Shown here piece after piece: positions 28,701-58,354 of a DNA stretch of 64,000 bases. Both the position numbers and the translations under genes were made by a program. The stretch covers positions 124,001-188,000 of the forward strand of contig JAPETS010000043.1 in assembly GCA_026023565.1 (NCBI GenBank), read 5' to 3'. Position 1 is the stretch's first letter. Each line of letters begins with the position of its first letter. The notes under the pieces are model-generated. The model saw only the letters and a program-made list of their open reading frames with translations. It was not told the DNA's origin and did not search any database. This DNA is from Cirrosporium novae-zelandiae (taxonomy: Eukaryota).

Positions 28701-29091
28701 ACCATTTATTGCAAGCAAGGCATTTCACGACGCTGCTTGGGTTATGTATACCGCAATATCTGTAACGCAGAGATTTAATTGTGTGGATTTAAATAATGGG
28801 GAATATCTCGACTTACGCGCAGGCATGTGCAGGGAGCTCTTTTTCTTCCTCTGGCCTTGAAGTCTTGCCGTTCACGCCGTCAACAGCCATACTAGCCATA
28901 CTCTCCATGTCATCTTCGTCGAAATCGGCAGTATCATCTTCATCGTGGTGTCTGCGGCGCGGAAGACCTGAGGGGGGATTTGTGCGCCCGAAATCGCCAT
29001 CCAATATGCTGTCGTCATCTTCCCCGGCGTTGATAGTAGCGGCGGAATCTGACACAAGATGGTTACCGAGATGGGTGAAGGCGCCTTCCAT
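25738..29091 (-). CDS. UPF1: Nonsense-mediated decay SF1 RNA helicase Upf1/Nam7, 1 intron
   Basis: CH zinc-binding domain (HACAYCGIH...KWFC...[10 protein letters not shown]), [22 protein letters not shown] and [10 protein letters not shown]. Intron 28760-28816. Confidence 0.97.
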
Positions 29092-29728: not shown

Positions 29729-30678
29729 ATGATTGTAAGCATTCCATCCCATTGGTCTCACTAGTTAAATCAACTAACATGGTCCCCCCCCCCCCATAGC
29801 GACGACAAGCCCGTCAACGGCGCGACTACCTCTACCGTCGCGCCCTCACACTTCGCGATGCAGAAATCGCAGAAAAGCGCCGCAAGCTCAAGGACTCACT
29901 GGCCTCGGGCAAGCCCCTAGATCCCTCGGTCGCCAATGACAAAACTCTACGTCAAGATTACAAATACGACGAGCCCAACGACTCCACTACGGCCGAAGCC
30001 CTCGACCTCGACGACGAATACTCCCACCTTTCCGGCCTGGTAGATCCCCGCATCCTGATCACCACCTCCCGCTCCCCCTCATCCCGTCTAGGTGCTTTCG
30101 CAAAGGAAGTCCGTCTCCTGCTACCTACCTCCATCCGCCTAAATCGTGGAAACCTGATCCTTCCCACGCTCGTCTCCTCCGCGAACAGCTCCGGCCTCTC
30201 AGACATGGTTGTGCTTCACGAGCATCGTGGTACTCCCACCGCAATGACGGTGTCACATTTCCCGCACGGCCCCACCGCCTCATTCTCCCTCCATAATGTC
30301 GTGCTCCGTCACGACATCCCCAACGCCACCCGTGGAACGGTCTCTGAATCCTACCCTCACCTCATTTTCGACGGCTTCACCACACCGCTCGGAAAACGGG
30401 TCGTCAAGATCCTCAAACACCTGTTCCCACCTAGAGAATCATCAAGGAAAATCGGCAATCGAGTCGTGACCTTCAAGAACATCGAGGACAGCATTGAAGT
30501 ACGGCATCACGTGTTTGTGCGGACGGGATATCAGAGCGTGGAGCTGGCCGAAGTTGGACCCCGGATGACAATGAGACTCTTTGAAATCAGAAGTGGAACA
30601 TTGGAAAACAAGGAAGGCGACGTCGAATGGCATCTAAACCAATACACCAGAACCGCCAAAAAGAAGGACTACCTATGA
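29729..30678 (+). CDS. IMP4: U3 snoRNP Brix-domain protein Imp4, 1 intron
   Basis: [39 protein letters not shown] and [16 protein letters not shown]. Intron 29735-29799. Confidence 0.95.
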
Positions 30679-32384: not shown

Positions 32385-35300
32385 TCAACGCTCTTCTGGT
32401 GAGATCCGTCTCTCGTTGGATAATGTTCGTTTAATAGATTGGTTAATACGACTGAAGATACTAACTCGTTCTTCTCGTATCTCTCGAATACTATTACGGG
32501 CGATGTCACCCGATTCTGGAGCTTCCTTATGAATCTTACAAAAAAGTTTTGAAAAGATATATTGGTCTCCAGCTCCATCGAAAAGGGGTAAATGACGGTA
32601 ACCCTCTTGGAGACTGCTCAACTTCGCCGTAAATGTGGCAAGGGGAAGATTGCTGTTTGGGCTGTTATAAGATTTCCCGTCAGAAGAATTCCACACCGAC
32701 CACCGAACAAACACGAGGCCGGGATACTTAGTTTCCAAGAGTAACTTGAATCCGTCATGATAAGTTGGATCGTATCCGTTACTTTGCGCAATTCTTGTTC
32801 GTCGTCGGTGAGGAAGCCCTATACCGGACATGCCATTACGAGCGGATGCGTCCAGCCCCCCTTCTCCAGAGGCAATCCCCTTACTCTTGTCCTCTGCACT
32901 GAACATTTCGATTTCGATATATGGATTGAAGGAATCTTCTGACCACATACCTTTGGGTCGTGGAAGTTGATGGGCAGAAATAACTTCAACTGAGAATTTG
33001 ACCAGCTGCTTCTCCAACTTGAGGCGTGGGGACGGGGCTTCCCTTGAAGGGTCTTGAGAATGTCTGGGATGACGTAGTTCCTTTGGTTTAAGGACATAAC
33101 CGGTACGGTCTGTCCCAGATGCAAACATGGCGTTATTCATTTGCATACCAGTATCGTATGTTTGCCAGTTCAAGGCCACCATCTGGACTCCACGGCGCCA
33201 AAATGTATTGGGATCAAAGTTGGACGACTTCACTCGAAACCCAGAAGGATATACACGAGTCAAATAACACGTGTTATGCCATTCGAGCTGAGACTTTGTA
33301 TGTGGATCTTTGCACATTCCTTCAAAGTTCCTTTCGGCAAAAGAAAAGACATGATTATAGGTTCGGCTCTCAGCATCTTCGAAGTTTGTCCATTTTTGGC
33401 CACGGGTGTACACTCCAAGGTCTGCAAGAGACTTGATGATCTTACTCTTTTGCTTCTTTTTTCTGTCCCTCCGATTCGACACGGTGTCGCTGTCTTCCGT
33501 TGAACTACTTATGCTTGTTGATGTCATCGACCGCTTTGTAGGACCCCAAACCGGAATCGCTTGTTCGGATTGGCTGATCGTAGGAGGGCTGGAGAGTGAC
33601 AAAGTCGTTGGAATGGCAATGCCATCAGGGGGAACTGGGCGGGCGAAAGGAGAACTTGCGCTTCGTTTGCGTCCCGCAGTGGCAACATCGTTCATAAACA
33701 ACGCCTCATCAACTTCATCGGAGGATTTGACCTTGACGAGTATCCTGTATTTTATTTCTTCTGGTGAGGGCAGCGTGGTGAACTTGTTTAGGACACGTTC
33801 GAGTAGTAAGCTATCTCCGAAGGACTTCTTCATTATAGTTACCATTGCCTCTTGTTGCTCTGCGCAACAATGGACTTCTAATGAGAGTATAAGTGGATAG
33901 GAACTTGCATAGAAAGCAAATTTTCCAATGACATCAATGCAGTCTTGGAATAAAATGCTAGTGGTCATTGTATGGCCATGCGAGACGATTGGGCGGCCAT
34001 CTTGACCATCCCAACAATCAATCTCAATACAGCGACAACCATCAGAGAGGCACTTAATGTAAGCCTCGGTACTAGATTCACCAGCCACTTGCCTGCCCAT
34101 TAGATATGTATTATGAGAACTTGAGATAAAGTATTCGTTTAAAGGCCGATCCAGAGTGACCTTGTCGGGAAGCGGTAAAAGAGCGTTATTAAAGGCTGAT
34201 GTGATAAAGGCTGAGAAGCCATCAAAGTTGACATGCGGCGGAATATTGCTCATAGCTTCTTGGTGTAATTGTGATTTGGACTTGGATTTGCGAGCGAACT
34301 TATGGAAGACTGTTACCCAGTGGTCGTATTCGGCTTCCACTGGGATAGCCTGCGAGCTTCGTAAAAATTGGAAGAATTCATCCATAGAAAGGCCTTGACC
34401 ACTATTCGATACGATAGACAGATAAAGCGCTTTAATATCTTTCCGTTCTTTTAGCCGCCGAATAAAGTCTTTAAACTCATTATAATCTAGAGAGCCTCGG
34501 GCATGAGTATCAGCCTTCATGAAGTGGGCTCGAAGTATGTTTGCTGAACAATTGATATGGAGACCCTTGCATAATTTCTCCAGCTTCTCCAGGCCGAGCA
34601 ACTCCTGCTCTTCGGTGTGATGATTATCACCGAAATGCTTGCTCATTTCTTGATGCCAGTACGCTCTGAGAGCTGCTTCACAATGTCTAGAACCAGCCAC
34701 GCCAGCCATAAGTGCCATTCTATATCGCGAAACATCTTCAAGAGTCTTGGTCCATACGGCACAGGATGGTTTGGACTCTGCCAGGAGATGCATTGTTTTG
34801 GTCGACCGTCCTTTAGAGCGGTCAGGGTCAGCATACAGAATGGTGATCCATCTTTTAGCCAGTTCATCCGGTATTTGAAATTCTTCTCTGTAGTTTTTCG
34901 CCTCGTATCCAGTTCTAATCTCCATGATATCGTCGATGTAGAATTTCTTGGTTGGATTGGTTTGGTCCCAGTATACTTTGGCAGCCTGAATGTCGATCCA
35001 GAATCTCATTGATTTTTTCTTATTTTTAGTCATCTTGGTAAAGACTATTCCCCGTTGTAATTGAGCAGGTAATGTGGGAGCGACACCTCCTGCCGGTAGT
35101 GGAACGGACCGGCTCGAAGGAGCAGGAGAACTTGATAGTCCTGATATTCCCAGGGAGTCCACCTGGTCATCTTTCTCTTCTTCGTCATCTCCGAATCCAA
35201 GATCCATCACATCAAGGGGTTTTTTCCCATCGCTTCGGCTGTCGCTCCTTCTCCGTAATATTACTGGTCCAGTGCTATGGTCACGATTGTTATGGGTAGA

Positions 35301-35717
35301 GGATTGACGTCTTCGAATCCGACTTGCGGCACCCCTAGAAATTCGTCTCATCAGGTTCGGAGTCCTGCTCGCACTCACAGAATCACTTGAAGTCTGTGAA
35401 CCTGGTTGAGGACTCGGATTCGTGTAGCTAAGTGCAGGTTCTTCGAGGTCGAAAGAATTAGGGGTTGAGGTATGAGACATTCTCCCTCGAAAGGAATCTG
35501 GCGAAGAGGTGATGGAAGTCTGCACTGGGCTGGCCATGTACGAATGTGAAGTTGAGCTCCCGGCAGAGGTCGGAGCGGTGGTGGTTGAACACGTTGATGA
35601 TGAAGGAAAATGGGGCATGTTCATGGCCAAACGAGGAAAAGGAATCAAGGGGGGCGAACGTCGCGTAGCTTTGATGGTATCTGGCGTTGTCGATCGAGAT
35701 GGGTGTGTCGAAGCCAT
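32385..35717 (-). CDS. PLC1: Phosphoinositide-specific phospholipase C (PH, EF-hand, X, Y, C2 domains), intronless
   Basis: YFISSSHNTYL, CRCIEIDCWDG, LILSLEVHC, LTRVYPSG, VQMVALNWQT and GYRHLPL. Confidence 0.96.
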   Translation of the reverse strand: MASTHPSRSTTPDTIKATRRSPPLIPFPRLAMNMPHFPSSSTCSTTTAPTSAGSSTSHSYMASPVQTSITSSPDSFRGRMSHTSTPNSFDLEEPALSYTNPSPQPGSQTSSDSVSASRTPNLMRRISRGAASRIRRRQSSTHNNRDHSTGPVILRRRSDSRSDGKKPLDVMDLGFGDDEEEKDDQVDSLGISGLSSSPAPSSRSVPLPAGGVAPTLPAQLQRGIVFTKMTKNKKKSMRFWIDIQAAKVYWDQTNPTKKFYIDDIMEIRTGYEAKNYREEFQIPDELAKRWITILYADPDRSKGRSTKTMHLLAESKPSCAVWTKTLEDVSRYRMALMAGVAGSRHCEAALRAYWHQEMSKHFGDNHHTEEQELLGLEKLEKLCKGLHINCSANILRAHFMKADTHARGSLDYNEFKDFIRRLKERKDIKALYLSIVSNSGQGLSMDEFFQFLRSSQAIPVEAEYDHWVTVFHKFARKSKSKSQLHQEAMSNIPPHVNFDGFSAFITSAFNNALLPLPDKVTLDRPLNEYFISSSHNTYLMGRQVAGESSTEAYIKCLSDGCRCIEIDCWDGQDGRPIVSHGHTMTTSILFQDCIDVIGKFAFYASSYPLILSLEVHCCAEQQEAMVTIMKKSFGDSLLLERVLNKFTTLPSPEEIKYRILVKVKSSDEVDEALFMNDVATAGRKRSASSPFARPVPPDGIAIPTTLSLSSPPTISQSEQAIPVWGPTKRSMTSTSISSSTEDSDTVSNRRDRKKKQKSKIIKSLADLGVYTRGQKWTNFEDAESRTYNHVFSFAERNFEGMCKDPHTKSQLEWHNTCYLTRVYPSGFRVKSSNFDPNTFWRRGVQMVALNWQTYDTGMQMNNAMFASGTDRTGYVLKPKELRHPRHSQDPSREAPSPRLKLEKQLVKFSVEVISAHQLPRPKGMWSEDSFNPYIEIEMFSAEDKSKGIASGEGGLDASARNGMSGIGLPHRRRTRIAQSNGYDPTYHDGFKLLLETKYPGLVFVRWSVWNSSDGKSYNSPNSNLPLATFTAKLSSLQEGYRHLPLFDGAGDQYIFSKLFCKIHKEAPESGDIARNSIREIREERVSIFSRINQSIKRTLSNERRISPEER

Positions 35718-36717
35718 GGTTACAGTTAGATGGACTACACGCTTGAGTCACCAGGACTGGTATGAAATGCTGAACCACGGGTTACAGGAGTCTGTTTCTG
35801 CTTGTAGCGATTGAAGGAATGTTGTACGGCAGAAGCTTAGAATGTTTGATTGTTTTTGATGGTCGACATCTTCAAAGGGCTCTGCCAGAGAGCTTTGAAT
35901 AGCTGATCCTTCCTCGATATCTTTTTTTTTTTTTCGTATTTCACAGTCAGACCTGCTTTGCCCGCGAATTACCGGACACACAGAACAAGGTCAGCTGGAA
36001 GGCTTCAAGGCCTCAGCATGCATGTCCTATGTTCTTAGCTAGCGGTGCTATTGCTGTACTCCTCCTTTTGGTTTGTATGCACGATGGCGAAAGCGGAATG
36101 ATGGATCGGGGGATGCGACAGGGTCGAAGAAATAAGGCGACGAATGATTAGTTCGCGTGGCGCAAACAGATAAGGAACGGACGAGCACCGCGGTCAAACA
36201 ACGAGTACTCTGAGAACGAGATGATTTTGTCTGCGTCGGCAGAGAAAACCAGGTCAATTGGTATATTGTTTTTTTAAGTAGTAAAAAGGTAAAGTTGGGA
36301 AAAGGGAAGGAATTAGAAAGGTAGAAAAGGTCGTTTTTTTTTTTGGTGTGGGGGAGGTTAAGGCAGATTGATGGGCGCGGGAACTTTCTATGAAAGAAAC
36401 TTGACGGTACCTGAACTTTTTCTGCCGGTTTATTCCAAAGGCGGACATGCACTTTGACAACTGCGGTTCGTCAACGCAATCTGGCAGTATTTGGATTTTG
36501 TTTGGGGGAGGGGGAGGGGGTGTTGAGGGTACACCGAGGAAATTAATAATTACCTTAATTCAATGGAGCAGGTCAGAACAGACACAGAACCAAAACAAGA
36601 CCAAACCAAACTAAACCAACCAGACAAGATAGACAGAACACAAATCCTGAAAAAAAAATTGAAATTTTGTCTTTTTCAACTTTTGTTTCAAAACTTGACT
36701 GGTTCTTTGGGATTTCA

Positions 36718-42700: not shown

Positions 42701-43310
42701 GTTTTGTAAAGATAGGGGTCAGTGAACTCCTACAATGGTTAGCGGAGAACCTTTTTTTTTTTTTTTTTTTTCAATCCACCATCCTTCAATATCTACCTTG
42801 TATGACACTACCTGAAGTTGTGGTAAGTAAATTAAAATGGCTAGAGGATCTAGACTCACTTACAGTTTGCTCCAATGATTGACCTTTTACCGAGTTTGTT
42901 TCTTATGGAGAAAATTATATACAAAGTACTGCACTTGTAATTTCCAAAAACCCTACATACCAGATATCGTCTTTCTTCTATTGCTTTCCAGTCATGTTCT
43001 GTACAACAACAATCTCGTTGAATATGAAAATGTCGCCTTAAAGTTGTAAGATGTAGCAATTTCCATCAGTTTCAATACTCATTAGAGAAATTTCATACAG
43101 TACTGGCTCAGCGTTGGCAAATCGGTCATGTCACGTCACATGTGTAATGTTTTCATCCTTTCCATTCTTCTCACTCAGCTCACGTCTCAGCTCTATGTTG
43201 AAACAATTGCCTAAATTCCTCTTCCTCTCCAATCGAATAATCATACCATCTTCAATTCCAGTAAAACCCTTTGTTACTGTTTGAATACCTTTCTTTACAT
43301 AGGAAGCACT

Positions 43311-45491
43311 ATGAATTGGACTGGGGGCCGTTTGCAAAGACATTCTCGCGGTAAGAAAGACGGCAATTCTATAGCTGCTATTCAAAAACGACACTTTGTT
43401 CAAGTACGACAACGCCAGCAGCATAGCCAACAAAATCGATCTCCCATCAAGCTATCGATCTTTAATAATAAAATGATATATCCTGGTAAGATTGATAGTG
43501 CAGATCAATCGGAGAGTGAGCCTCGAAGCTACCCGCAGAGTAGAAATGCCAATTTGGGAGAGCAGATGAAAATGGAGCAGTTTGAGAATATTGCTGCTGT
43601 TGCGAAGAGACTCGGTAGCACGAAACGCTCCCGTTTGAAATCTTCAGAGAGATTAGCCTCCAACAACTTCTCAAGTCAGATCCCAATGCCTCTTAGTCCA
43701 ATGCCAAAATCATCAGATTTCGAAGACCTTAAACAAAAACTACTCAAGAGGCGTGACTGGGTAGGGACAGCCATCACTCATCCTCTTCGCAGGAACCTAT
43801 CCACAGCAAAGGATGCCGAAAGAGTCGCAAAGCGTCGGAAAGTCACAAAAGAAGACCAACTTCGACAGACTGCACCAGTACCTCTGATAAAATCCCCGCT
43901 ATCTCGATCCAGAAACTTAGGAGTCTACCAACCTGAAGACCCTAGCATTCGAATTGGGCGATCACTGCATGGGAGTCGTACATCCGAGGGCCATGCTACT
44001 ACTAAGCACTCTTCTCCATCGAGAAGCCTTCGATCTGATTCAATGTTGCTGGATAATTTTGAGATATCTAGCCAGCGACCCGACTTCCAACGAAATTACG
44101 GTAATCCTGGACTGGGGAATGATGTGATGGTAACCCCTTACCAGGGTTATTGGAGGAGGAACAGTCGAGATGGGCTTATATACGGACAGCAGGTGCATTG
44201 GCCTGAAAAGCATGACTATTTCGGCAGACTTACTTTGCCGTTGACTCCAATCGTGCCAGCGACATCAGACTATGGTACTGGCAAGAGACAATACCATGAG
44301 TCCCTTAACGGAAAGCAGCCGAATGCTCTAAAGCAGTATAACCAACCAGGAGAAAACCTTACCTCTTTAGATCCATCGCCATTCTCGACTCGATATGCAC
44401 AATATCCACAAATACACCGAAAGAGTTCGCTAGCTCAGTCTTTCGATAATCAGCAATCAGAAATCCCTGAACCCTCTAACGACGAATTTTCCAGCCACCC
44501 TCCACCCACGAGTCCCCTAGTGCATTCAACTAGGTGTGCAGAGGGCCTGCCAATGCACCAACCAATCTCGTCTGATCGGGTTTTGAAGAGACAGATCCCT
44601 AATTTCATAGATCGCTTGGAGTTGGCTCATAGCGAAAGTTCCGAGATGCATTCGCACAGTCCCCTGTCTTATGACGAGGAGATCATGTCATCCATAAGAA
44701 GAAGCCAATCTACGATAAACACGAACACTGCTGCAGTAAGCCCATATCGACGTTCAGTGGTCCCCCGCATAGTCCGCGATGAGGACCAGGCGTGGAGAAA
44801 CTTTCTTTTTGGAGACGAGACGGAAGCAGAAGAGACAGGGAAATTCAGTCTGCCGGACTTGAGAGGACATCCGAAGGAGTATCAGTCGATATTCAATGAC
44901 ATTGGCAAAACCTCGATGTACAGCGAGGCTTCGCCGAGGACATCAATAGGGTCGTGTGCGCAGGAAATGATAGTATCATCAGGGAAAACTAAAGACGCTA
45001 TGTGCAACACAAATGATTCCGCGTATAGGCTGGATAGCATCCTAGGAGAAAGTACAGAGTTTTCGTCAACTGAGGTTGATACTGCAGCAGCAGTTGGTGG
45101 TCCAACCATCTCTGAGGATAGTATTGCCTCCTTTCCAAATACGGCATCATTGAGTCGGATCATCCCCTGGAACAAGCACACGCCCTTCAATCCTATGACA
45201 CCGAATATCAACCATCCCGTTCAAGTCAGCACCAATGGGATTTATTCCACAAGTCCGCTAACCCCCAAGACTCTCCCTCATCTTTTGATGTCATCTCAAG
45301 CCCCTACGCGTACAGCAACAAGTCATAAGACATTGTCCAGCAAGCCAATACCGTATGGTTCCGAATATTGCAGACGTGACATTCGACCAGGGGAGAGACG
45401 TTCTTTTCGCATTGGCCAGAATTTAGCAAGGAACTTGGCAAAGAACAAAACCACGGAGGTTGAGGATATTAAAGATGATTGGTCTATATAA
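43311..45491 (+). CDS. Largely disordered 726-aa protein with conserved N-terminal MNWTGG motif (candidate HEIP1/REDIC1-like meiotic crossover factor)
   Basis: Intronless ORF beginning MNWTGGRLQRHSR...IQKRHFVQVR; internal LKQKLLKRRDWVG and DQAWRNFL motifs. Confidence 0.75.
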   Translation: MNWTGGRLQRHSRGKKDGNSIAAIQKRHFVQVRQRQQHSQQNRSPIKLSIFNNKMIYPGKIDSADQSESEPRSYPQSRNANLGEQMKMEQFENIAAVAKRLGSTKRSRLKSSERLASNNFSSQIPMPLSPMPKSSDFEDLKQKLLKRRDWVGTAITHPLRRNLSTAKDAERVAKRRKVTKEDQLRQTAPVPLIKSPLSRSRNLGVYQPEDPSIRIGRSLHGSRTSEGHATTKHSSPSRSLRSDSMLLDNFEISSQRPDFQRNYGNPGLGNDVMVTPYQGYWRRNSRDGLIYGQQVHWPEKHDYFGRLTLPLTPIVPATSDYGTGKRQYHESLNGKQPNALKQYNQPGENLTSLDPSPFSTRYAQYPQIHRKSSLAQSFDNQQSEIPEPSNDEFSSHPPPTSPLVHSTRCAEGLPMHQPISSDRVLKRQIPNFIDRLELAHSESSEMHSHSPLSYDEEIMSSIRRSQSTINTNTAAVSPYRRSVVPRIVRDEDQAWRNFLFGDETEAEETGKFSLPDLRGHPKEYQSIFNDIGKTSMYSEASPRTSIGSCAQEMIVSSGKTKDAMCNTNDSAYRLDSILGESTEFSSTEVDTAAAVGGPTISEDSIASFPNTASLSRIIPWNKHTPFNPMTPNINHPVQVSTNGIYSTSPLTPKTLPHLLMSSQAPTRTATSHKTLSSKPIPYGSEYCRRDIRPGERRSFRIGQNLARNLAKNKTTEVEDIKDDWSI

Positions 45492-45594
45492 ATAACTATT
45501 CCATTACATATATTGGCAAGTGAAAAGATAATCTGATTCGGTACTAAAGATGTGTAATATGAGCCAATTTTGAAGCGATTGCTGATAGGGATCT

Positions 45595-46548
45595 TTATTC
45601 TAGCCTATGTATCTCGAACCGCATAGTTCTAACATCTGGATCATGCAATAATTTATCTTTTCCAGCAACTTTCCCCCAATCTTGGGGTGAACCTAGCTTT
45701 ACGTTAACCTGTAGTTTCGCCCCAGTCTTCCTGGCAATTTCAGTCCACATCCTCTGGAAGCTTTTGTTGTTATGCATAAATACTATACCCTTAGGACTGT
45801 CCTTGAGTGCCAGCTCTTGCTCGTTCGTATTCGCCATATGTCTCCCAAGAACAAGTGAGCCAGCTTTCGGTTTCAAGATTCGCACCATCCTTATACCAAG
45901 AGCAACTTGATCGTCCCATCCAAAAAGATGGAGGAAACTTGCAGCATGTATGATATCGATCTTCCCCTCTAGCTCTTTCAGTGGCACCGACTCCTCGTCT
46001 AATGCATCGGCAGCAAAGAAATGTGCCTTCAAGGTGTCCCTGTCTTGGAACAGTTCATACCCCAAATCAAGGTATTCATGTATCAGGTCGGTACCCGAAA
46101 GGCTGTCAGGTTGGGCTCCATCCATGACGAGGCTACGGATATCTTGGCCGAAGCAGCATCCCATATCTAGGAATGTATCGCCAGACTGCAAGCGCCTGAT
46201 GATGGTTGGGTATAGTGGAGCCCGAGAAATAGAGAGGTCAAGAAAGCGAAAGCGGCCGATGCATGGATAGGGGAATATTTGCCATGCTTTTGCTCGCTGT
46301 TTATCGTGTATTACATTAAATGGTCAGCGGTGAGATGGGATTGATGGTACGAATGTACCATTTCCACATGAAGAAGCACGTACGATAGCATGAATATGAG
46401 GAACCACTTGCTCTGGGGGGATTCCACTATATTGTTCCAGTATCCTTCTAGCAGGCGTAATGTCATCTATGATGTCTTTATTGTAAAATTGAGCAGTGCT
46501 CTGCCGGGCCTGGTTTTCAGGATTCCTCTGCTCATGAATTGATGCCAT
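45595..46548 (-). CDS. SAM-dependent methyltransferase (fungal AusD/GedG-like family), 1 intron
   Basis: LEQYSGIP, AWQIFPYPCIGRFRFLDL, FLDMGCCFGQDIR and IIHAASFLHLF. Intron 46297-46383. Confidence 0.9.
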
Positions 46549-47395
46549 AGCTGCTTGTGTTTGTTATTCTCAAATATGCTCCAGAGCAGAGGTAAGAAAG
46601 TGCTCGGGTATATAATACCGTTTTGTTGTTGCCTAAGCTAGGTTTGTTTACTGGATGTATAGTACCTTCTGTGTATGATTGTAATTAAAATATACAGAGC
46701 AAAACACTTCGGACAAGGGAGGATATTTAATATTGTTTCCTTGCCCCCAAGGTGGTATGAAGTTATTATGAGATGTCGCTATTATAAGACTTCCCCATCT
46801 ATTGCCATGACTTGGTCAAGAATTGTGGAGTTGTGTTGTGCTACTTGCAGCTAGCTACCTAGGTAATCAATTAGTTAACCGAAAATCAATGAAACCGATC
46901 ATTATTTCCGACGCCAATGAACAATTTGACAACACTTGCATTTCATCATAACTAATTCATTTCCTAATTTCATCCACCCTTCATCCAATTCAGTTTCTGA
47001 TATTCCATTACTTCATGTCCTATCAATGACTGTAGATCATTTAATGCCCTTTCCTCTCTGGGACTGGAAGAAGACCTTAATCGGGTGTCCAACACACGAC
47101 CTGAACCCTAGAATGCACCTCTGCTAATTAGGCCCTTTTCACTTCATTAAATCGTCCATCATGATGCAAAGACTGATGCAAAGACTGTCGAATTTCTCAT
47201 CAGAAAAACAATCATGTCATGCATGAGATGACTTTCAAATCATCTCATGACCCATCCTTTGTTCTCTGGACGAAAGACACATCGCGTTGCTAATCATTGA
47301 GCATGGTCCCCAAGATAGAGAATTAGGCTGCATTGTCATTAATTTTGAAGTCCGTCATTCATTCCTACAGGTCCTTTGGCTATTCTGATGGTCAT

Positions 47396-49336
47396 TCAGC
47401 TTTTCGCAATCGCATCGAGCACCGTGTCGCGATAGCTGGTGGCTGTTCGCTCCCAATTATATTGGTTGAGTACCCACTGCTGACCATCGTCTCGCAGTTT
47501 GAGCCATGCAGTAGGGTTGGCGGCCAAACTGTATAAGGCTTCTCCAATAGCTGCAGGGCTTCTTGGATCCACCAACAATGCATAGACGTGGCCATTGCAC
47601 CGTAGGCTCTCGCTGGGTCCACCATTCCGAGTGACGACAGCGGGCAATCCGCTTGCCATAGCCTCCAAAGGCATAAGCCCAAAAGGCTCGAAATCCGCTG
47701 CCAAACAGAAAATACCCTGCTTGGTGCGTCCTAAATGACGATATACAGCCGCAAGCTCATCTTGCCGATTTTCTAGCCCAGGCACGATGAAGCATTCGTC
47801 TTGCATTCGGCTAGACACCAGAAGTTTTTTGATTGAACGAGCCAGGGCTAGCTCGGCGCCTGTGAAACTGACTTCGGGGTTACGGAAGGCATTTTTACCA
47901 CCTTTTAGGAGGAAGAGAAGATTGGCGCTACACCGCAAGCGCGAGTTCTGAGCGAAGGCACGTACAATATTGATATGATTCTTTTTAGCATCTAGACGAC
48001 CAGCTGCAACGACTATAGGCAGATGACGCCGTGCTGGCGGGATATCTTGGATGATGGCAGTATTGAGAACTGCTACAGTAGCGGCTTCGTTAGAAGCACG
48101 TTGATAGACCCCGAACACATCTAGGTTTATACCTGGAGGAATTGTTGTGAAACGGTCGATGTCTTCAATGCTGATAGCACCCAAATAAAGTGGATGGCCG
48201 TATTGAGTTTCTCGTTCAGCGTGGGTGCTGGTGACGATGTGAGCGGCCATGGACATGCTCCAGCGTTCTGCATTGATGCGTTGATCAAAATTGAAAGGAC
48301 GAAAGTCTTTATTTTCGATGAGCAACCCATCAATTTTCTGAGCCCCTAAGCTGTGTCCTTGGAAAATCCCGAACGGCAAACCGCACGTGTCCCTAAGGCG
48401 TGCCGCCGCGAGGCCCCCATCGGCATAATTCCCGATTGTGGCGTGCGGAAACTGCCCCTCACATTCATAAAGGACTCTTATATTATGAGCCCAGCCATTA
48501 AGGTGTGGCCACAAATCTTCCTTACGCAGGAACTCCCGAGGCCCAGCCGGAATGCGTAGGATTCTTACACGCCCAGCAATTTCGCCATCCGGGAGGACTA
48601 CACCGTCTGATAAGATTTCTTCCGGAATATCGAACTGCTGCCATCGTGGATGAGTAAAACGACGAGTGACAATATCTACATTTACCTTCAATCTACCTAA
48701 GGCCTGGGCTAATTCGCGTACATACACAAGCTGGCCACCGAAGTCAGCATGCTCGCCAAAACCTGTGTTTGCTGCATCGAAATTCCCCTGCGGGTTCAGG
48801 AAAGCGAGGTGCAGCCGAGAACGGCGCACGAGAGATATCGTCCCTGCACTCTCAAGGTTTACCAAGCTGGCGGAATCGTTAGACCGGGTAAGCGCAGGAC
48901 GATCGATCTTTGACAGCAATCCCTGGAAATTCTCAGGAAGCGGTGACAGGCCACAGAACATCGCCATGGCAGTGGCCGGTCGCATTATGTTGATTTTGAA
49001 ATCATAACATAATTTCACCACACGAAGCATAGCGGCTGGTGAATTTAGAGCCCACACATCAGTACGAGAGGTCTGCGGCCCTTTGGTATTGTAGTAGTGC
49101 TTCCCCGCCAGTGCAAATGCAACTGCGGCGGTAAAACGGTCTATGTCAGGGAACCTCTGCTTGTCGTAAACGGTTTCCACTATATTATGAACGGCTGTTA
49201 GTGAAAGCTCGACAATTGGAAGGTTGATGCTGCCAAGCTCCAGCCCCCCTCCTACCACCACGTCTGGAGGGGCATTGAATGTTATTTTGACAACTTTCTT
49301 TGTTGACACCTGACGGAGACTGGAGAGATTTATCAA
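47396..49336 (-). CDS. Bacterial-type sucrose-phosphate synthase-like glycosyltransferase (GT4) with an extra N-terminal domain of about 170 aa; true start uncertain
   Basis: LAFLNPQGNFD, EHADFGGQLVYVRELA, VDIVTRR, LRKEDLWPHL, GHSLGAQK, RINAER, QYGHPLY, IPPG, RLDAKKN, EPFGLMPLEAMASGLPAVVTRNGGP and YNWERTA. These match the Halothermothrix-type SPS motif series. No introns. Confidence 0.88.
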   Translation of the reverse strand: MINLSSLRQVSTKKVVKITFNAPPDVVVGGGLELGSINLPIVELSLTAVHNIVETVYDKQRFPDIDRFTAAVAFALAGKHYYNTKGPQTSRTDVWALNSPAAMLRVVKLCYDFKINIMRPATAMAMFCGLSPLPENFQGLLSKIDRPALTRSNDSASLVNLESAGTISLVRRSRLHLAFLNPQGNFDAANTGFGEHADFGGQLVYVRELAQALGRLKVNVDIVTRRFTHPRWQQFDIPEEILSDGVVLPDGEIAGRVRILRIPAGPREFLRKEDLWPHLNGWAHNIRVLYECEGQFPHATIGNYADGGLAAARLRDTCGLPFGIFQGHSLGAQKIDGLLIENKDFRPFNFDQRINAERWSMSMAAHIVTSTHAERETQYGHPLYLGAISIEDIDRFTTIPPGINLDVFGVYQRASNEAATVAVLNTAIIQDIPPARRHLPIVVAAGRLDAKKNHINIVRAFAQNSRLRCSANLLFLLKGGKNAFRNPEVSFTGAELALARSIKKLLVSSRMQDECFIVPGLENRQDELAAVYRHLGRTKQGIFCLAADFEPFGLMPLEAMASGLPAVVTRNGGPSESLRCNGHVYALLVDPRSPAAIGEALYSLAANPTAWLKLRDDGQQWVLNQYNWERTATSYRDTVLDAIAKS

Positions 49337-50799
49337 CTAACTGGATACTTCTTTAATTCAGCTCCTTGGGGTGTACTAGAGAGCCAAAGGGTTGACAACA
49401 AAGGCGAAGTTAATATGACAAATAGGGGGGTTTATCTTTTCAATGGAGGCTTAATTGAAGGCAACGATATAACAAATGAGAATTCCCACTTGGAATTATG
49501 GAAAAGTGAGGTTTATGGAATAGAAGAACATGAGCCATGTTCACGGAAGGGGATAGGGGAGAGAAAAGGAAGCGGAAATGGCTGAGGCTTCATCGTCATG
49601 GCAAACAAGGAGTGCAAGTGAATAGATTGATGAAGCCGTTGTGATGATGTTGGCAAACATTGCCGTCAAGGTAGTGAATTTGCTGCCAATTACCTTGGAC
49701 TCGTTTTCGAAGAGACGGGTATTAGCATGATAAAGAAATGAATAAGTAACAACGAGGTGAATATGCCCTATTCTGGATTCGAGGACCCGATATTTGAAAG
49801 CTATGGTAACCTATAACAGGATTGCGATAGGGATTTTGAACACTAAAGTTTCAATATTCAGGGCAATGTTTGCTGTAGGTCTATAGCGGTGTGCTTTGAA
49901 TTTTTTGAAATTAGAAACTGCGAACGGAATCACACACTTATATGCAAAACTAACTAACAAATAAAGGTATGTTGGATCGAGGGAAACGCCTTCACAGGGG
50001 AAAGATACCGCTGCAACGTCTTCTGGAGAGTATAACGAATGAAAACGCAGTCCCTATTGGCCTTATCTTTGCTAACGGAGTCTACACCAACGTCAAGTGG
50101 GTTACACTTGAACATGGCTATGGCTACTGTGTTAACGAACGTGTCCTACCTCCTCATATCGGGATTCTTGCATGACGTGACTTCATCGTTATTAGGAATG
50201 TTTTGAATCTCAAGCTTCAGATCTAACATTGTGACTATGGAACGGGAGATTTAACTACATGGAAAGATATAGAGATTAAATATGATCGACCTCTTTTATT
50301 TTTACTAGAAGAAAAAGCAAAGAAGACGTCGATAACACCTCTAAGCTCTAAGACAATGGGCTCGATAAGGGAAACAACGGAATAGACATGCTGACACGCA
50401 GACACACAGACGCAGAAGAAGCATGGATATGCACAGGGGTTTTGAGATTTTCGGAACCGTTTTTATGGTGCTATTACTAATTTTTTAATCCAGAATTTCC
50501 GACAGACTGGAACATAAATTAAACCCTTGAATCCTTCCTTCCCTTCCGGCCTTTTCTTTCCCTAAGTCATAAAAATAGGCTACCTGAACTACGCTACTGC
50601 CATCCGCCGTCCGATGAGCTTGGGATAGCAGAGCTCCAGATAGAAGAAAAAAAATCGCTCGCTTGCTCGATCTTTCCCTCAAATTCTTTTTCTTTCTTCC
50701 GCACCGGCTATCTATGTCAATTGACCTCTATCCACCATAACCCGAAGGTGACATACAGACAATAAAATGAATCATCATCATGTCAATTGATCAATTAGT

Positions 50800-53580
50800 C
50801 AAATTGGTCAAACTGGGGCAGATTAACCAAAATCCCAAATCATTTAACTACCGATCGAACCCTTTCCTCATTCACCCGGAATATAGATCCGTAAACATCC
50901 CTGCAATAATCATCAAATAAACCATTAATACGAATATGGATTAGGAGCGTTCGTTAATTGAGGGAATTAAGGGACTGGAAGGAGGGAAGAATTAGGCGGG
51001 GATGGGAGTATTTTTTTGTTTGTACTGTACTTTCTGTCCTTCTAGTTTTTTTACTAGGTAGGCATCAATAACAGCACAATCTAACATAATTTCCTCTTAC
51101 TATAGCAATACTACTGCAGAGGGCTGATTAGGAAATTAAAAGGATGGAGCAATTAGGCGGGGGGAGTCTTTTTTTTGTTTGTTCTTTCTGCCTCTGCTTC
51201 TGCTTCTGCTTTTTTTTACTAGGTATATCAATAATAACAGCACAATTCAATCCAACCTGGATGCTTTTCCCTCTTAACTCTAGCAAATATATCACAGCCA
51301 GCTACCATACCATAACTGACTGACTGGGTGGGCATAATATCCATATATAATATTTACCCCCATTTTTATCTCGTCCTCATCCTCATCCCACCATATACCA
51401 TGAATGAAAAGGAAAAGGGAAAGGGAAAGGGAAAGGGAAAGGGAGAGTAATCATATTTCTATTGTATTGCCCCCCCCCCCCCCCCCTTTCCAATCCACTC
51501 ATCCACCCATATATAATAAATAACGGGGGACGCCAATTCTATCAAAAAAAAAACGGAAACGAAATGAAAGAAGTGAGTTGGGTGAGTGAGCGAGTGAGTG
51601 AGTAAATGAATTAATAAATAAATAGATATGTCCTCTTTTTTTTTTGAGGGAGAGGGAGAGGGGGAGAGAGATAGTATGAATGCTATGCTATGATATTTAT
51701 TATTTCATTTTTATCCTCATCGAGTCCTACTATTAGGAAAGGAGAGGGGGAGGGGAGGAGAGAGGAGGGAAGGGAAGGTAAGGAGAGGAATTTTATACTA
51801 CCTATATTATCTGCCCTATAGATATACCATATGACAACTTACAGCTTACAACCCCCCCCTCCCCAACTCCCCTTCCTTTCCCTTCCCTTCCCTTCCTTTC
51901 CCTTCCCTTCCCTTCCCTTCCCTTCCCTTCCCTTCCCTTCCTTTCCCTTCCCTTCCCTTCCCTTCCTTTCCCTTCCCTCCCTAGTAAACCAAATATTTTT
52001 TTCTTCTTTTTTTTCTTCTTCTTCTTCTCAATACCATCCATACCACCATTATCATAACTAAACCCCCCTTCCCCCCACTCCCCCTCCCATAACTATTTTT
52101 ATTAGATACAGTAGAAGGGATTAGTAGAGAAAGAGACAACAACGAAATTATTTTTTAATAATGATAATGACAAATAACGTCCCTACATATATATTATAAT
52201 AACCCCTTGCTATTATTTATATAATATTTCTATACTATACACAAACCCCCCCTATATATAAACCACCAAAGGAATTTATTTTATTTTATTGTATCTTCTT
52301 AATACTAATTAATAAATATCATTTTATTTTTATATCTATAACCACCACCGCCAGCTACCCTCCTCTCTCTCTCCCATGATCATTCCTATAACTATTCTTT
52401 CTAGATAGTGTTAGATAAGAGGGGAAAAAAAGAATAAGGAGGGCTAATAGAAATAAATCTTTCTTCATTTGGATGGATGGGTAGGGTAAGGTAAAAGGGG
52501 GATGTGGGATGGGATTGATAGTGTTGGATGGGACGGGATGGGATGGGATGTGGGATATATATGACCTACCTACCTACCTAGCTTAGTTACGATATACTAT
52601 ACTGTACTGTACTGTACTGTACTGTTATAAACATATATCAAAAATGAAAACTAAACTCAAATGAAGGAAGGAAGGAAATGAAATAAATACCCATACTATT
52701 ACCATACCATACGTACCACATATATATATTCCCCCCCCTCCCCCTCCCCCTTCCCCTTCCCCTTCCTTCTTCTTTATCTCCCCACTCTCTCCCTATTCAT
52801 TCCCATTCCCGTTCCCGTTCTCTATATTCACGCTCACGTTTTACATTTTACTTTAATTTTTTTTATTTTGAAATGTTAAAAAGGAAAAGAAGTGGTTGAG
52901 GTTGTGGCTGGGTATGGATATGAAGATTGGAGATAGACAAAGGGAGAGAGGAGGGATGGGGGGGTGGACAATGGAAAGGTGAGGAAGGTGAGGAAAGGGG
53001 AGGGGATAAGAAGAAAGGGAAAGGAGAAAGGAAGGGAAGAGAGAAGGGGGGAAGGAAGGTGAAGAAGGGAAGATTTCATACATTCATGATTATGATTATA
53101 ATCAATCATGCCATGAGACAGCACACCCATTACCCATACCCCCTTACACGCACACACACATAAACACAATCATCCCGTTAGAAGACAAACAGAACAAGCA
53201 CAACACTCTTACCTAACCAAGCTAAGCTAAGCTAAAAGGGGGGACGTGGAATACCCAGTTGTTAGGATATATAACCTAGGCTATACCGTAACACACCTAC
53301 CTACCTACCTACCTACCTACCCTCATTGATGTTAATTTCCTTCTAATATCTTTGAATTTCTAATTCATAATTTTTTTTTTAGATTGTTTATTTATGAATC
53401 GTGATTGTGAAAAAAAGAAAGAAAAGAAAGATCTAATTACCAGATGAACCTAATAACGAAATCGAAAAATCAAATAATCCCTTTTTTTTTGTTTTGAAAG
53501 TTTACAAATAAACACGTTTTATTTTCTTCAGCTTCTCCCTCATATACACACACTTCACCCATCCACCCACCCTCATCCTC
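50800..53580. repeat. Second low-complexity intergenic tract (microsatellites, polypurine/polypyrimidine runs)
   Basis: (GGGAAA)n, (CCCTT)n at ~51870-51980, (TACTG)n, (CCTA)n, (GGGAT)n and C/A/T homopolymers. Confidence 0.85.
50950..51290 (+). repeat. Diverged tandem duplication of a unit of about 165 bp
   Basis: Both copies share aattaggcgggg...ttttttgtttgt...ttttttactaggta...atcaata..acagcacaat...ctctta..tagcaa. Confidence 0.7.
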
Positions 53581-53588
53581 ACTCCCAC

Positions 53589-56500
53589 CTAAAACCCACT
53601 CCCATTCTCCTTACCCCCACCCCTACCACCACCACCACCCCACCCCCCCTCCCCCCTCCACTCCTCCCAAACCCGTCTAAAAACCGCCCTCTCCTCACCC
53701 CGGAAATCTGCATTCACGGCCCTCACACCCTGATACCCCACGCAATTTAACACCGCATACAGACCCGGCAGGAGTGCCTGGTTCGTTTCTGCTGGGAGCG
53801 GGGTTTGGAGACGTAGGATGCAGTAGGTGGGGAGGAGGTATTGCATTCCTTCGGTGCCGGCGTGGGATTTTGCGAGGGTTATTGGGTTAGTTAGGTTGTT
53901 TGGTGTGGTGGTTGTGGAGGGGGTGGTGAGGGTTTGGGGTTTGGGGTGGTGGTGGGGGTGAGGTGTTACGGATGAGGGGGTTGGGTCGCAGATAGAGGTT
54001 AGGAGGGTGGAGAATTGGGTTGCGTGGGCTGGGGTGAGAGTTGGGGTTTTGGATTTGGTTTTGATGTTGTTATTACTATTCCCGTTTTCTCTGGGTGCTC
54101 GTTTCTTTTTTAGGAGAATCCACCGTGGGAGCGAGGATTTGGTGCTGTTTCTTCCTCCCGGGCTTGCACCTTCGAATAGACATTTCATTAGCCCCTGTAG
54201 CGCGGGAACGACTAGATGAAGCCGGCCTTCAATCTCCCGTCGGTGGCGTGTCGATATTGCGGCGAGGAGTTGGCAGAGACGCGAGTATATGCCTTCGGTA
54301 TGTTTGGAGGAGGAGGGATTCAGTGAGGCTTCCGGGGATGTCATTTTCACGATTGCGGAAAGTGTAGTGTTGATGTTGGGTTGGGTTGTGGCCCAACGCT
54401 TTTCGATTAAGAGGTAGGTTAGCATGTCGGCTATGACGATGAAACGCGGGATGTTGGTTATTTCATGGGTTAATAGGTCGAGTAGATGGAAGTAGCATTC
54501 TGAGAGGGAGGTTCGAAGCAGAGCGCGGTCGGCTAGGGAGTGCGGTTCGGTGATGGAGTGGAGGACGGAGAAGAGAGCTGGGAGACCCGTGGCGGAATGA
54601 GGGTTTGAGCAGGCCGATTCGAGTTTGTGAAGGATGGTAGAGATTTCGGTGGGGGAATCGTTTTGGACGAGGGCCTTGAAGCGACGGAGGAGGGAAGCTT
54701 GTTCGTCGCGTGTGTGGATCGGGTTTTGGAGCTCGTTTAAGAGAGAGTCTATTTGGGATGGCTTGTCTGTATCAGATCCTTGGACTATGAAATTCAATTC
54801 TTGGAGTAAGGCTAGGGCTTTGTTGATATAAGGCTCTTTTAGATTGGGAGTATCTAGTGCTTGCTGGCGGTGTACTGTGTTTATGAGGCTAGTAATGTCC
54901 TTACTAATGGAAAGAAGACGTTCTTTTTCAGGACACCGGATGAGTTCCTTGAGGATAACCTGCAGATCAAGTCGACTGGTGGGATCCTCGATCCAGGTCC
55001 CAGGGACAGCCAGCTTATGAAGATCTGAAACCAAAACGTTCCAATATTCAACATCTATGTGAGATTTAATTGTGGAATCATGGAGGTCAATATCGTGTTT
55101 CTGAAAGGTATAAACGACAGAGCCACATAAAACACGCCTCGCACATTGACCAAGAAATGAACCTGTCTCTGTCATGGAACAAAAAACAATAGCTTTGATC
55201 TGGCTGAGATATTGCGAGCTACGTGGTTGATCTTTCGTTATGATTAGATGAGATAGTGTCAGCTCGGCAAGTCTCTGGTATATTCCCACAGATGACATGT
55301 TAGGAAGGTCTTTCAGGCTATCAGCAATCGCCAAGAGAACATTTGCTTCAACTGAGATCTTTGCAGATGCGTTGGGTACCTCCATAAGTTTGCACATCAA
55401 GCTTAACCTCGTATTAGTTTTTTTAGGAGACTCTGTAGTTCCTTTGGACATTGATGTACTATGGATGAGAGTTTCACCAACGAGATCAAGTATCCTTTCC
55501 CTTTGGGATCGTTGCAATGTTTCAAGCGGGACTGCTGACAATGCTAACTCCAGGTAGATATCATCTGGACTAGACTTTTTGAACTGGTCTATATGGGCTT
55601 GTAACATTTCTTTGAACAAAGTTTTGTCTTCCTGAAGTGCAGCACACCCGAGGAAGGCATCCCAAAACAATGGTGGCATTTCTGGATCTCGGGGGTTTTC
55701 TGGTGCTAGTTGATCGCGGAATGATAAATGAGTATAGATGTTGGCTAGATGACAGAGTGGTCCGAAGAACTGTTGACGCTTATCTGAAGAAGCGTATAGG
55801 AATACTTGCGGAAATCGGAGAGTCATAGATATTAACCCGGCACTTAGTTCTGATACTGTTCTCAAGTTTTGTCGTTTTCCATCCCATGTACAAGGCCACG
55901 TTTGCATTCCGTGATGTCTTATTTTATCCCCATTTTTGTTATCAAGCGAATCGGTAATTCCGTTAACATATTTGGCCACATTCTGTACCGATTGATCCAT
56001 AATTTCTGAGAACCTTTCGGCGACCTTTTTTGCTTTCTCCCTAGGCTGTTCATCTGGTCTCAAATTGATGCATAATGCAAAAAGGTAGAAAGCTTCATAG
56101 ACCTCAATACATCTAGAAGCTAGACAATCGGCACTTTCGTCATATATCATGTTGGCTTCTTTTATGACTTTCTTCAAAGAACGGAATAGCTTCGACAGAG
56201 ATTCGATAGGTGTATCTTGAAGTAGTCGAGGAAAGTTTTCGTATATTACTCTTAACAAGCGCAAGAATCGCCATCGGAATGTTGACTTTTGCATTGCAAA
56301 ATTAGAAAGAATATCATCACTCAACGCTTTGATCCGAAGAATGACATCCTCTTCGACATTCCCCCAGAACTGGCTTCTAAGGACTAGCCCTTCCAGAATG
56401 ACAGAAACAGAGGCAGCCCTTGCATCATCGGGGTTACCTTGCATGCCCTGAAAATTCGTCATTGAGGCTTTTAAGATAGATATTTCCTGAGCTGTTGATG

Positions 56501-58354
56501 AAGTCGAGACAACTTCGGGATTGCTAAACGCAATAAGTATATCCTCATCCTCCCATATGGAGAACTCTCGATTTCCTATAGGCCTATATGGATCCAGAAA
56601 AATAAACAGTTGCTCTTTCCAATAACCAGTGAATCTGGTTAGATCTCTGGCTTTAGAAAAGGCATTCATCAATGGGATCATGATTCTTGAACGGAGAAAG
56701 TCAGACGGCTCAGCGATATTTATCTTCTTGAATAATTGGTCGAGTAACTCTTTTGTGGTTTTCGGAAGTTCTTCAGGTGCTTCTTTTCCTAATCTATTCC
56801 ACACACTTTCACTTGGACCAACAAATACACTCGAGTCCAGACCGAGGATCTCAGCAAGAAGATCCCAGGCTGGTTCCTCAATCCTCCAGAGACCGCAGAA
56901 TCTGGCGGCAATATCCGCCAGCAAGCCAGTGCTAAGGGTAACCCTTCTCTTGAGGCTCATGTTGAGTAGTTTTTGAAGAATCTTCCTATGTTCGGATTCC
57001 AACACTTGGTCATTTCTTTTGAAATCTAGTCCGGAGATCTCTAGGAGAGCGCAAAGAAGAGTCTCGAGCCAGGGATCCTCCTTCAACTGCCGAGTGGGAT
57101 TATCCCGCCGCGTAATCTTAAGAGTTATATCATACATTATTGTTAGGGGTAGAATTAGCGGAGAAGGCGTACGCCTTGAAACTTCTAAAGACGTATTGGC
57201 TGTAGATGTCGGCTCATTGGATATGTTTGCATTCGAATCTTTCTGGATCTGCGTTTTCAAAGTAGGAAATGGGGTAACAGATGTAATAGTGGCAATCGTT
57301 TCCAGCGTGGCGGTCTTAAGACCGGATTCGAAAAAGCTGGTTCTAAGTGGGAGAATGACATGACGAGCTAGCAGACTTTGCAAGGGCTTAACCAAGGTCG
57401 CGGTTGGCTTTGCGTCTGGTATTACCTTCGGGAGATATTTGTTTTTACAGGTCCATAATAGCCATAAAATAGGCCTTAAGCAGTGCGCCGAAAAGGCATC
57501 GTTACTGACCTTATTCAGCGGGTCATCACTATTGGTGGATCGATTAACCCATATCTGTAAAAGTGCAACAAAGTCATTAATAATGAAATTCTTAGAATCA
57601 TGTTCTTCAGATGCTGGAAGGGCTAGAATGTTATCTGCTAGAGTCGACGCATGACCAAGTATTCTAGCGGCTACTTCAGGAGACGCACGAAGAACAGCTT
57701 TCATGTGCTGCTGGGCCGGGTTCAGTTCTTCAATATCATTTCCTATTAACTCTCGAATCTCATCTAGAATGCGTAAAACGCATACTGGTAGACGGACTGA
57801 AGAAAATAAGGCGATATAAGAATCTGAGTCTCGAGGTATGTTTGTAAGAGGCGTCTGGCTATTGATGATAATGTTTGGTTTAACAAATTTGTCCCCTACT
57901 TTCCAGTCTTGAATCAATTCGACAGCTTCTTCAAGTGCCTTGTCCACAATATCGATGAACTTATGTTCTTGTAGAGCGCTTGCTGCAGGCCGCAAAGGAA
58001 TTCGCTTTATCAACTTTTGGAGGAGTAGCCATGCTCCTGGTGTACATCTTGGAGTCTTTCCTTGAGACACATGAAGTTCTTTTAATAACCATTTTAGGAC
58101 TGCTTCCTCTTTCGCCGGGAAGGGGGATCTGAAATCTGGATCAAATCCTTGATCTACAAGTGTCGCTAGGCGGTTTGGGTCCAGGCCTATGATGGCAACA
58201 GCATCGATCAAACGATTTGCGAATGGTACTTGCTGGTCAGTTAATGATCGCAAGCGTTCCTGTAAATTTGGCGCAGGATGCCCCTAAGATATCAAGTTAG
58301 TATCTGGTATAAATGGGTCCAAAAAACGTAACATACCTCAATAATTGGTGCCAT
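53589..58354 (-). CDS. URB2: Nucleolar pre-ribosomal protein Urb2/Npa2, 1 intron
   Basis: N-terminal EAVLKWLLKEL..WLLL; C-terminal Urb2-like domain RHRREIEGRLHLVVPALQGLMKCLF...LLPGLYAVL...VNADF...RAVFRRVW. First exon MAPIIE, intron 58284-58336. Confidence 0.8.

Follow-up and report, generated by a model that had tools for sequence, protein, structure and literature searches.

A sucrose-phosphate synthase-like gene of bacterial ancestry in the chromosome of the ascomycete Cirrosporium novae-zelandiae

Why should a fungal chromosome carry a gene resembling the sucrose-phosphate synthase (SPS) of the bacterium Halothermothrix orenii, and what might its product make? The question is raised by a 64,000-nucleotide stretch of the genome assembly of Cirrosporium novae-zelandiae, an ascomycete of the class Xylobotryomycetes (GCA_026023565.1, contig JAPETS010000043.1, positions 124,001–188,000; this whole stretch is termed here the window, and all coordinates refer to it). 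On its minus strand the stop-to-stop open frame at 47396–49336 encodes, as judged from sequence comparison, a glycosyltransferase of family GT4 with a GT-B architecture, whose closest relative of solved structure is H. orenii SPS. The gene is resident in the nuclear chromosome of the ascomycete.

The open frame comprises 646 codons, its 47396 end including the stop codon. From the first in-frame ATG, at 49030, it gives an open reading frame (ORF) of 544 codons (47396–49030, minus strand), whose 544-residue product, P0001, provides the residue numbering used below. The catalytic domain, of the H. orenii SPS type, occupies residues 73–544 (47399–48814, minus strand). It is intron-free, as a preliminary description of this DNA had stated, a single open frame aligning with the H. 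orenii SPS structure (2r60) over its length. The interval proposed in that description, 47396–48815, coincides with the catalytic domain, of which residue 73 starts at 48814, whereas the gene itself extends further 5′. The six motifs named there were all located in P0001, on the minus strand. The first two, FLNPQGNFD (residues 77–85) and FGGQLVYV (residues 97–104), belong to the FLNPQGNFD…DFGGQLVYV segment (48719–48802), which carries the acceptor-side glycine loop G98-G99-Q100 and is invariant in an alignment of 20 sequences (A1). They are followed by GNYADGG (residues 200–206, 48413–48433), which contains Asn201, and by GHSLG (residues 225–229, 48344–48358), which contains the catalytic His226, equivalent to His158 of the Thermosynechococcus elongatus SPS (TeSPS). 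The RLDxKKN motif, here RLDAKKN (residues 345–351, 47978–47998), provides R345 and K349, together with K350, for nucleoside diphosphate (NDP)-phosphate binding, the first two corresponding to TeSPS R249 and R253. Finally, the E-x7-E motif EPFGLMPLE (residues 448–456, 47663–47689) contributes E448, P449, L452 and E456.

Assignment to the H. orenii type, likewise proposed at the outset, is borne out both by sequence and by modelled fold. The Pfam families Glycos_transf_1, Glyco_trans_4_4 and GT-B_Sucrose_synth each match above their cut-offs, and a phmmer search of the Protein Data Bank returns 2r60 as the best match (E value of 4.8e-105 over residues 73–538), with the sucrose synthases 4rbn and 3s27 and the T. 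elongatus SPS 6kih ranking far behind by sequence. For the 667-residue database protein P0002, which represents the complete predicted gene product, an AlphaFold2 model derived from an alignment of 44 rows shows predicted local distance difference test (pLDDT) values mostly above 90 over the glycosyltransferase domain (residues 190–667 of P0002). When used in a Foldseek search, this model also retrieves 2r60 first (41% identity, E value of 1.9e-46, TM value of 0.80 relative to the length of the target). With other SPS types as the root of the tree, the query falls within a 52-row ingroup with support of 100/100, Halanaerobacter and Halanaerobium standing in for H. orenii, which is itself not in the tree. 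Two other identities were considered and rejected. Sucrose synthase identity is not supported, since TIGR02470 gives 97 bits against a cut-off of 810 and the sucrose synthase Pfam domains SUS_N and EPBD give no match at E values up to 1; the query shares with 4rbn and 3s27 the GT-B core and a GNYxDG motif. A two-domain SPS of the plant and cyanobacterial kind is likewise excluded, as the protein ends four residues past the region aligned with the glycosyltransferase and has no PF05116 match.

The active site of the enzyme appears to be preserved. In TeSPS, according to the published study (PMC7264703), the 6-OH and 3-OH groups of glucose are bound by His158 and Glu331, and replacing either residue with alanine abolishes activity; Pro332 and Leu335 give the site its shape, Glu339 contacts the ribose, and Arg105, Arg178, Arg249 and Arg253 bind the phosphates. 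These residues were mapped by profile alignment to 6kih_A (chain numbering +3) combined with the invariant columns of A1. His158 and Glu331 correspond to H226 and E448 of P0001, both invariant in A1; Pro332, Leu335 and Glu339 correspond to P449, L452 and E456; and Arg105, Arg178, Arg249 and Arg253 correspond to K170, R251, R345 and K349. All nine positions are conserved in P0001 and most are invariant across A1, with lysine (K170 and K349) in place of the TeSPS arginine at two of the four phosphate-binding positions. On the acceptor side, the residues numbered Gly33/Gln35, Tyr128, His151, Ser152 and Lys157 in 2r60 are also retained; the glycine loop, the tyrosine, the serine and the lysine reportedly bind fructose-6-phosphate in H. 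orenii SPS (Chua et al. 2008).

One position of the site, Asn201, had been taken in the preliminary description as a possible sign of altered activity. The asparagine is indeed unique in A1, all 19 other rows having histidine, and the Mycena and Favolaschia relatives described below also keep the histidine of HYxDGG. However, 6kih has asparagine at the aligned position, as do 4rbn and 3s27, the two sucrose synthases of solved structure, and the T. elongatus SPS is active by assay (PMC7264703), so that this reading of the substitution is not supported. More broadly, TeSPS shares with the query its catalytic and phosphate-binding residues and, presumably, its reaction chemistry; it belongs with the plant and cyanobacterial family (TIGR02472, TIGR02468) to a distant clade outside the H. 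orenii-type group (E value of 2.5e-12 in the single-sequence search, 24% identity by Foldseek).

Comparison with H. orenii SPS itself (2r60, 2r66 and 2r68) shows a common GT-B fold, catalytic-domain length and motif series, including the G-G-Q loop, Tyr202, His226, Ser227, Lys232, RLDxKKN and E-x7-E in query numbering. The query differs in several respects: it has at least about 170 extra N-terminal residues and no C-terminal tail, carries insertions of one and two residues and a shorter loop after GAQK, and has Asn instead of His at position 201. It also differs in its setting, lying in a eukaryote and having neither fructokinase nor HAD phosphatase neighbours.

How, then, did such a gene come to lie in an ascomycete? 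A protein database search gave 2193 matches (E≤1e-20), of which the best 120 were listed; the counts that follow refer to these 120. Only five bear fungal names, the Cirrosporium record itself included (the others being Mycena sanguinolenta, M. olivaceomarginata, Favolaschia claudopus and Entomortierella parvispora), ten bear bacterial names and the remainder none, which speaks against membership of a widespread fungal family. The closest relative is a Joint Genome Institute (JGI) metagenome protein, P0005, in the same 90% cluster as P0122, with 58–62% identity. Mycena and Favolaschia proteins are 51–52% identical to the query (48–52% when a further comparison is included), and bacterial ones at most 47–49%. 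Of 601 candidate stretches that a prokaryote scan with one genome per species brought up, 530 proved to be relatives; the top 80 of these show 39–47% identity and come mostly from Chloroflexota, Nostocales, Rubrobacter and Halanaerobiales, with a single Myxococcaceae locus. A metagenome scan with P0002 alone yielded no relative, and one with a second alignment, A2, yielded 46 loci of 31–48% identity, none of them the contig of P0122. Among the metagenome loci, one contig of GC content 0.66 (L096) carries a tandem pair of H. orenii-type genes, at 230–1585 and 1731–2795.

A maximum-likelihood tree was computed from 58 rows and 458 columns under LG+C20+F+G4 with posterior mean site frequencies (PMSF), after 24 of the 82 rows of a first tree, mostly distant outgroups and near-duplicates together with one long branch, had been dropped. 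In this tree the query pairs with P0005 (support of 100/99), and the pair groups with P0007, Favolaschia and the two Mycena sequences (99/80). A 14-row clade (100/98) adds a group of Entomortierella, P0151, P0113 and P0156, the Myxococcaceae protein, P0154 and P0179/P0180. Together with a sequence of the red alga Cyanidium (99/97), this clade is nested among sequences of Spirochaetota, Fidelibacterota, Bacteroidota, Calditrichota and Chloroflexota. Rare indels agree with the tree: one additional residue before GHSLG and two in VPGLxNxQ are present in all six clade members of A1 (P0001, P0003, P0004, P0007, P0080 and P0060, the Myxococcaceae protein being included) and in none of the 14 other sequences. 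The Cyanidium caldarium protein (P0306), an H. orenii-type SPS homologue in its own right and sister to the fungal and myxobacterial clade, looks like another eukaryotic occurrence of a bacterial-type SPS.

The sister group and the more distant members of the clade differ from the query in several ways. M. sanguinolenta P0003, M. olivaceomarginata P0012 and F. claudopus P0004 share the indels, and their genes lie in fungal chromosomes, on contigs between 179 kb and 1.3 Mb long; they belong to Basidiomycota and have only about 25 residues before the glycosyltransferase domain, lacking the N-terminal extension of the ascomycete protein. The fusions of SPS with sucrose-phosphate phosphatase (SPP), namely Entomortierella parvispora P0080, P0151, P0156 and P0309 with its counterpart on metagenome contig L081, lie in the same 14-row clade at 42–45% identity to the query and, unlike it, carry a C-terminal S6PP domain, which in P0080 contains DVDYT and GDSGND, presumably the HAD catalytic motifs. 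Over about 900 residues P0080 has 67% identity with P0151, which is labelled as a Pseudomonadota metagenome-assembled genome, and 70% with P0309; L081 encodes at 4302–7532 a 1,076-residue P0309-like fusion whose identity to the E. parvispora protein is 70%. Since the L081 contig is dense and intron-free, with a major facilitator superfamily (MFS) sugar transporter and a 491-residue cysteinyl-tRNA synthetase (CysRS) beside the fusion gene, the fusion sub-group may come from bacteria, and the assignment of P0080 to a fungus is uncertain: either the fusion is bacterial-owned and its fungal label doubtful, or it was recently transferred.

The nesting of the clade among bacteria makes its bacterial ancestry well supported, and this part of the horizontal acquisition first proposed for the gene stands. 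The other part does not: the query groups with Mycenaceae at 99/80, and a recent, private transfer from a bacterium to this fungus is therefore not shown. What is seen looks like an old, patchily kept acquisition common to a few other fungi, and the gene entered the lineage of the ascomycete early enough for its composition to have ameliorated and its structure to have been remodelled. Its host-like composition, the absence of the bacterial C-terminal tail, the conserved N-terminal extension and a probable 5′ intron would all be marks of long residence. The gene may have come down from an early Dikarya ancestor and been lost many times, may have passed from one fungus to another, or may have been taken up separately from related bacteria. 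A competing account develops the first of these routes: the ancestor shared by Ascomycota and Basidiomycota would have possessed the gene, which then descended vertically and was lost nearly everywhere, so that no transfer into the lineage would be needed. We consider it unlikely. The sister relation of query and Mycenaceae sequences and the fully host-like base composition suit it, as does the 51–52% identity between them, which seems an ordinary level for orthologues of the two phyla; yet the five fungal names among the best 120 of 2193 matches, below which weaker homologues could hide, imply very many losses, and the same data are matched equally well by transfer between fungi or by two uptakes from related bacteria, the latter being left open by the approximately unbiased (AU) test reported below.

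The N-terminal extension, together with the 5′ end of the gene, sets the ascomycete version apart. Upstream of the ATG at 49030 the frame stays open for 102 further codons, to 49336, with no in-frame ATG within 49336–49031. A tblastn comparison with residues 51–133 of P0122 places the conserved part of the extension at 48944–49192 (minus strand; 54% identity, E value of 5e-25), and blastp gives 56% identity over 81 residues (E value of 5e-24). The alignment spans the ATG at 49030, whose methionine pairs with a leucine in P0122. Because this conservation (54–56%) about equals that of the catalytic domain with the closest relative (58–62%), the extension is coding, and the absence of an ATG from the open frame upstream of 49030 means that a 5′ exon is required. 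The gene thus probably has a 5′ intron. A public automatic gene model proposes a putative first exon with the start ATG at 50150–50229 and a putative 830-nt GT..AG intron at 49320–50149, both on the minus strand; joining 50229–50150 to 49319–47396 gives an exact match to the 667-residue P0002, itself an automatic prediction with exon 2 beginning at 49319. The extension matched no Pfam family in the profile search, and its AlphaFold2 pLDDT values are about 32–61, below 50 for most of its length. It is lineage-specific and the sole structural novelty of the protein, and may represent a regulatory or targeting module peculiar to eukaryotes. A likeness to the EPBD domain was considered and dropped: a feature match in the Atlas to sucrose-synthase EPBD fragments scored 0.79, below the threshold for a lead, and the structural rows of the Atlas had TM values of at most 0.40, also under the threshold of the tool.

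Conservation of the catalytic and phosphate-binding residues makes sucrose-6-phosphate synthesis the most likely function, which we regard as probable with a fair margin for doubt. The protein would act as a retaining GT-B enzyme converting NDP-glucose and fructose-6-phosphate to sucrose-6F-phosphate and NDP, with His226 and Glu448 holding the 6-OH and 3-OH of the glucosyl group, K170, R251, R345 and K349 binding the phosphates and E456 the ribose; sucrose would then be released by a phosphatase. Substrates, product and physiological role are all inferred. Genomic context in relatives supports a sugar-phosphate product. A fused S6PP domain is present in P0080, P0151 and P0156 of the 14-row clade of the query. 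Around seven bacterial loci, 21 of 64 ORFs were scanned (those flanking the glycosyltransferase gene and a few one gene further), and PfkB or S6PP stands next to the glycosyltransferase gene in four of the seven. In the Myxococcaceae locus an ORF with an S6PP domain lies about 1.8 kb downstream; in that of Halanaerobacter PfkB lies upstream and two HAD/S6PP-like genes downstream; and in those of Halanaerobium and Rubrobacter PfkB adjoins the gene. According to the H. orenii genome paper (PMC2626281), the SPS of this bacterium has been cloned and characterised, and sucrose is proposed there as a compatible solute. The Rubrobacter locus (L013) has further features: a second SPS-like glycosyltransferase fused to a PfkB kinase (4496–6961, 821 residues) adjoins the H. 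orenii-type gene, which is itself preceded by another PfkB gene.

Could the same fold and chemistry serve another specificity, such as the use of GDP-mannose and fructose-6-phosphate by mannosylfructose-phosphate synthase, so that a disaccharide phosphate other than that of sucrose is made? The clade-specific indels lie near the catalytic histidine and in the B domain, the N-terminal extension is private, the only characterised member of the clade is distant and the NCBIfam equivalog score is low (both figures are given below), all of which would suit a changed specificity. Against it, the glucose-, phosphate- and ribose-contacting residues of TeSPS are all conserved, and clade members are fused to or adjoin phosphatases of the S6PP family. 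No mannosylfructose-phosphate synthase model appears among the NCBIfam matches of the query, and none of the papers listed by a literature search on that enzyme names it in title or abstract. We judge such a shift unlikely, a shade more so than the vertical descent discussed above.

Beyond the single protein, these results raise the prospect, which we put forward tentatively and at less than even confidence, that a few scattered fungi, among them a Xylobotryomycetes ascomycete and Mycenaceae, use an SPS derived from bacteria to form sucrose or sucrose-6-phosphate de novo, the ascomycete version having gained a conserved N-terminal domain of no known family. Several observations weigh against the favoured account of the enzyme and its origin. 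H. orenii SPS, at 41% identity to the query, is the sole biochemically characterised member of the clade. The query misses the equivalog threshold of NCBIfam TIGR02472, with 213 bits against a cut-off of 576; all eight other H. orenii-type proteins scored with this model, those of Halanaerobiales included, fail as well (213–326 bits), and the model therefore does not cover the H. orenii-type clade. A tblastn search of the 64-kb window with five SPP sequences found no SPP-like sequence (best E value of 0.37). A word-based search of the shorter database proteins with the SPP domain of P0080 returned four matches, the only name borne by any of them being a generic HAD-hydrolase label; neither search shows absence. 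A search of the longer proteins recovered only P0309 and P0151 as fused SPS-SPP forms. P0122 lacks about 120 residues spanning NPQGNFD, DFGGQLVYV and FLRKE within one continuous ORF, which may be a sign of decay or repurposing in at least one representative of the lineage. The AU test does not reject a placement of the query and P0005 beside the Myxococcaceae protein (p value of 0.131, delta lnL of 8.7), and the branch order inside the 14-row clade is therefore soft. Lastly, the predicted intron of 830 nt appears long for an ascomycete.

Some of these points would also fit a relic, that is, an acquired gene no longer expressed or catalytic: the main ORF has no true start codon, its 5′ exon being only predicted, the acceptor loop is lost through an internal deletion in P0122, the nearest relative, and the searches just described, the second of them limited, found no SPP. 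An uninterrupted run of 646 codons, a complete set of intact catalytic residues and an N-terminal extension about as conserved as the catalytic domain make such decay very improbable, and we retain sucrose-6-phosphate synthesis as the favoured function.

The chromosomal setting of the gene is clearly eukaryotic, as first described. A Pfam scan of stop-to-stop ORFs identified in the window UPF1 (25738–28788), Brix (29800–30678), PI-PLC X+Y (32385–35747), a methyltransferase (45595–46323) and Urb2 (Urb2/Npa2; 53589–58283), as well as Mito_carr, syntaxin/SNARE, a cytosine/purine permease and Glyco_transf_8. The Mito_carr and Glyco_transf_8 matches are each divided between two adjacent frames that hold consecutive segments of the profile, the pattern that introns would give. 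The linkage of the gene to its fungal flanks, for which confirmation had been sought, was found in a 12,570-nt Logan contig that covers 43000–51398 with no differences and joins the gene to both flanks at a depth of 353.8, near-equal to the depth of 352 of the Logan contig carrying Urb2. This contig derives from the same sample and run through a different assembler; only one public run, a DNA run that is possibly the source sample, matches the stretch. The base composition agrees with long residence, the SPS gene having a GC content of 0.509 and a third-codon-position GC content (GC3) of 0.493, against 0.46–0.50 and 0.44–0.48 for six neighbouring genes. The GC content of the window is 0.36–0.50 throughout, with no compositional island. 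Contamination or chimerism is very unlikely to lie behind the location of the gene: a chimeric assembly, or a bacterial contaminant joined to a fungal contig, might be suspected from the metagenome-assembled genome label of the database record, and is practically dismissed by the difference-free bridging contig (depths of 354 and 352 in same-sample reads), the host-like composition and the fungal identity of the closest relatives. The Logan contigs break at 51.4–53.6 kb on simple repeats; one such tract, at 51100–52100, has translations of GKGKGK, RERERE and PFPFPF, and here the contigs end and the depth falls.

Were the enzyme active, the committed step of sucrose synthesis would be present in some fungi, a group not credited with this pathway; only plants, algae, cyanobacteria and certain other bacteria are known to make sucrose de novo. 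Full-text literature searches aimed at SPS in fungi, Mycena and Mortierella found no study of a fungal SPS, a looser search listed no paper bearing the name of the enzyme, and mentions of sucrose-phosphate synthase in PMC10891331 amount to generic Enzyme Commission (EC) mapping. In public databases the automatic name 'sucrose-phosphate synthase' is attached to Mycena, Favolaschia and Entomortierella proteins, 'glycosyltransferase family 1' being the alternative label in the Mycena and Favolaschia group. Activity would be relevant to compatible-solute and desiccation biology, and also to the way in which fungi associated with plants or algae exchange carbon; Mycena species have been reported to enter roots. 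As an instance of gene transfer the locus is a clean one, in which eukaryotes have domesticated a metabolic gene from bacteria: its composition is host-like, its N-terminal extension is new and an intron is probable, and Myxococcaceae provide a plausible bacterial relative sharing the same rare indels. Its value is that of a testable lead rather than a demonstrated trait.

Two further features of the window deserve mention. The methyltransferase and SPS pair is adjoined on its 3′ side by a plus-strand frame of 758 codons (43215–45491) that is rich in Ser, Pro and Gln and matches no Pfam family. An AT-rich segment at 12001–16000 (GC content of 0.36–0.38) lies directly upstream of the cytosine/purine permease gene, and the region at 14–16 kb shows strong negative GC and AT skew.

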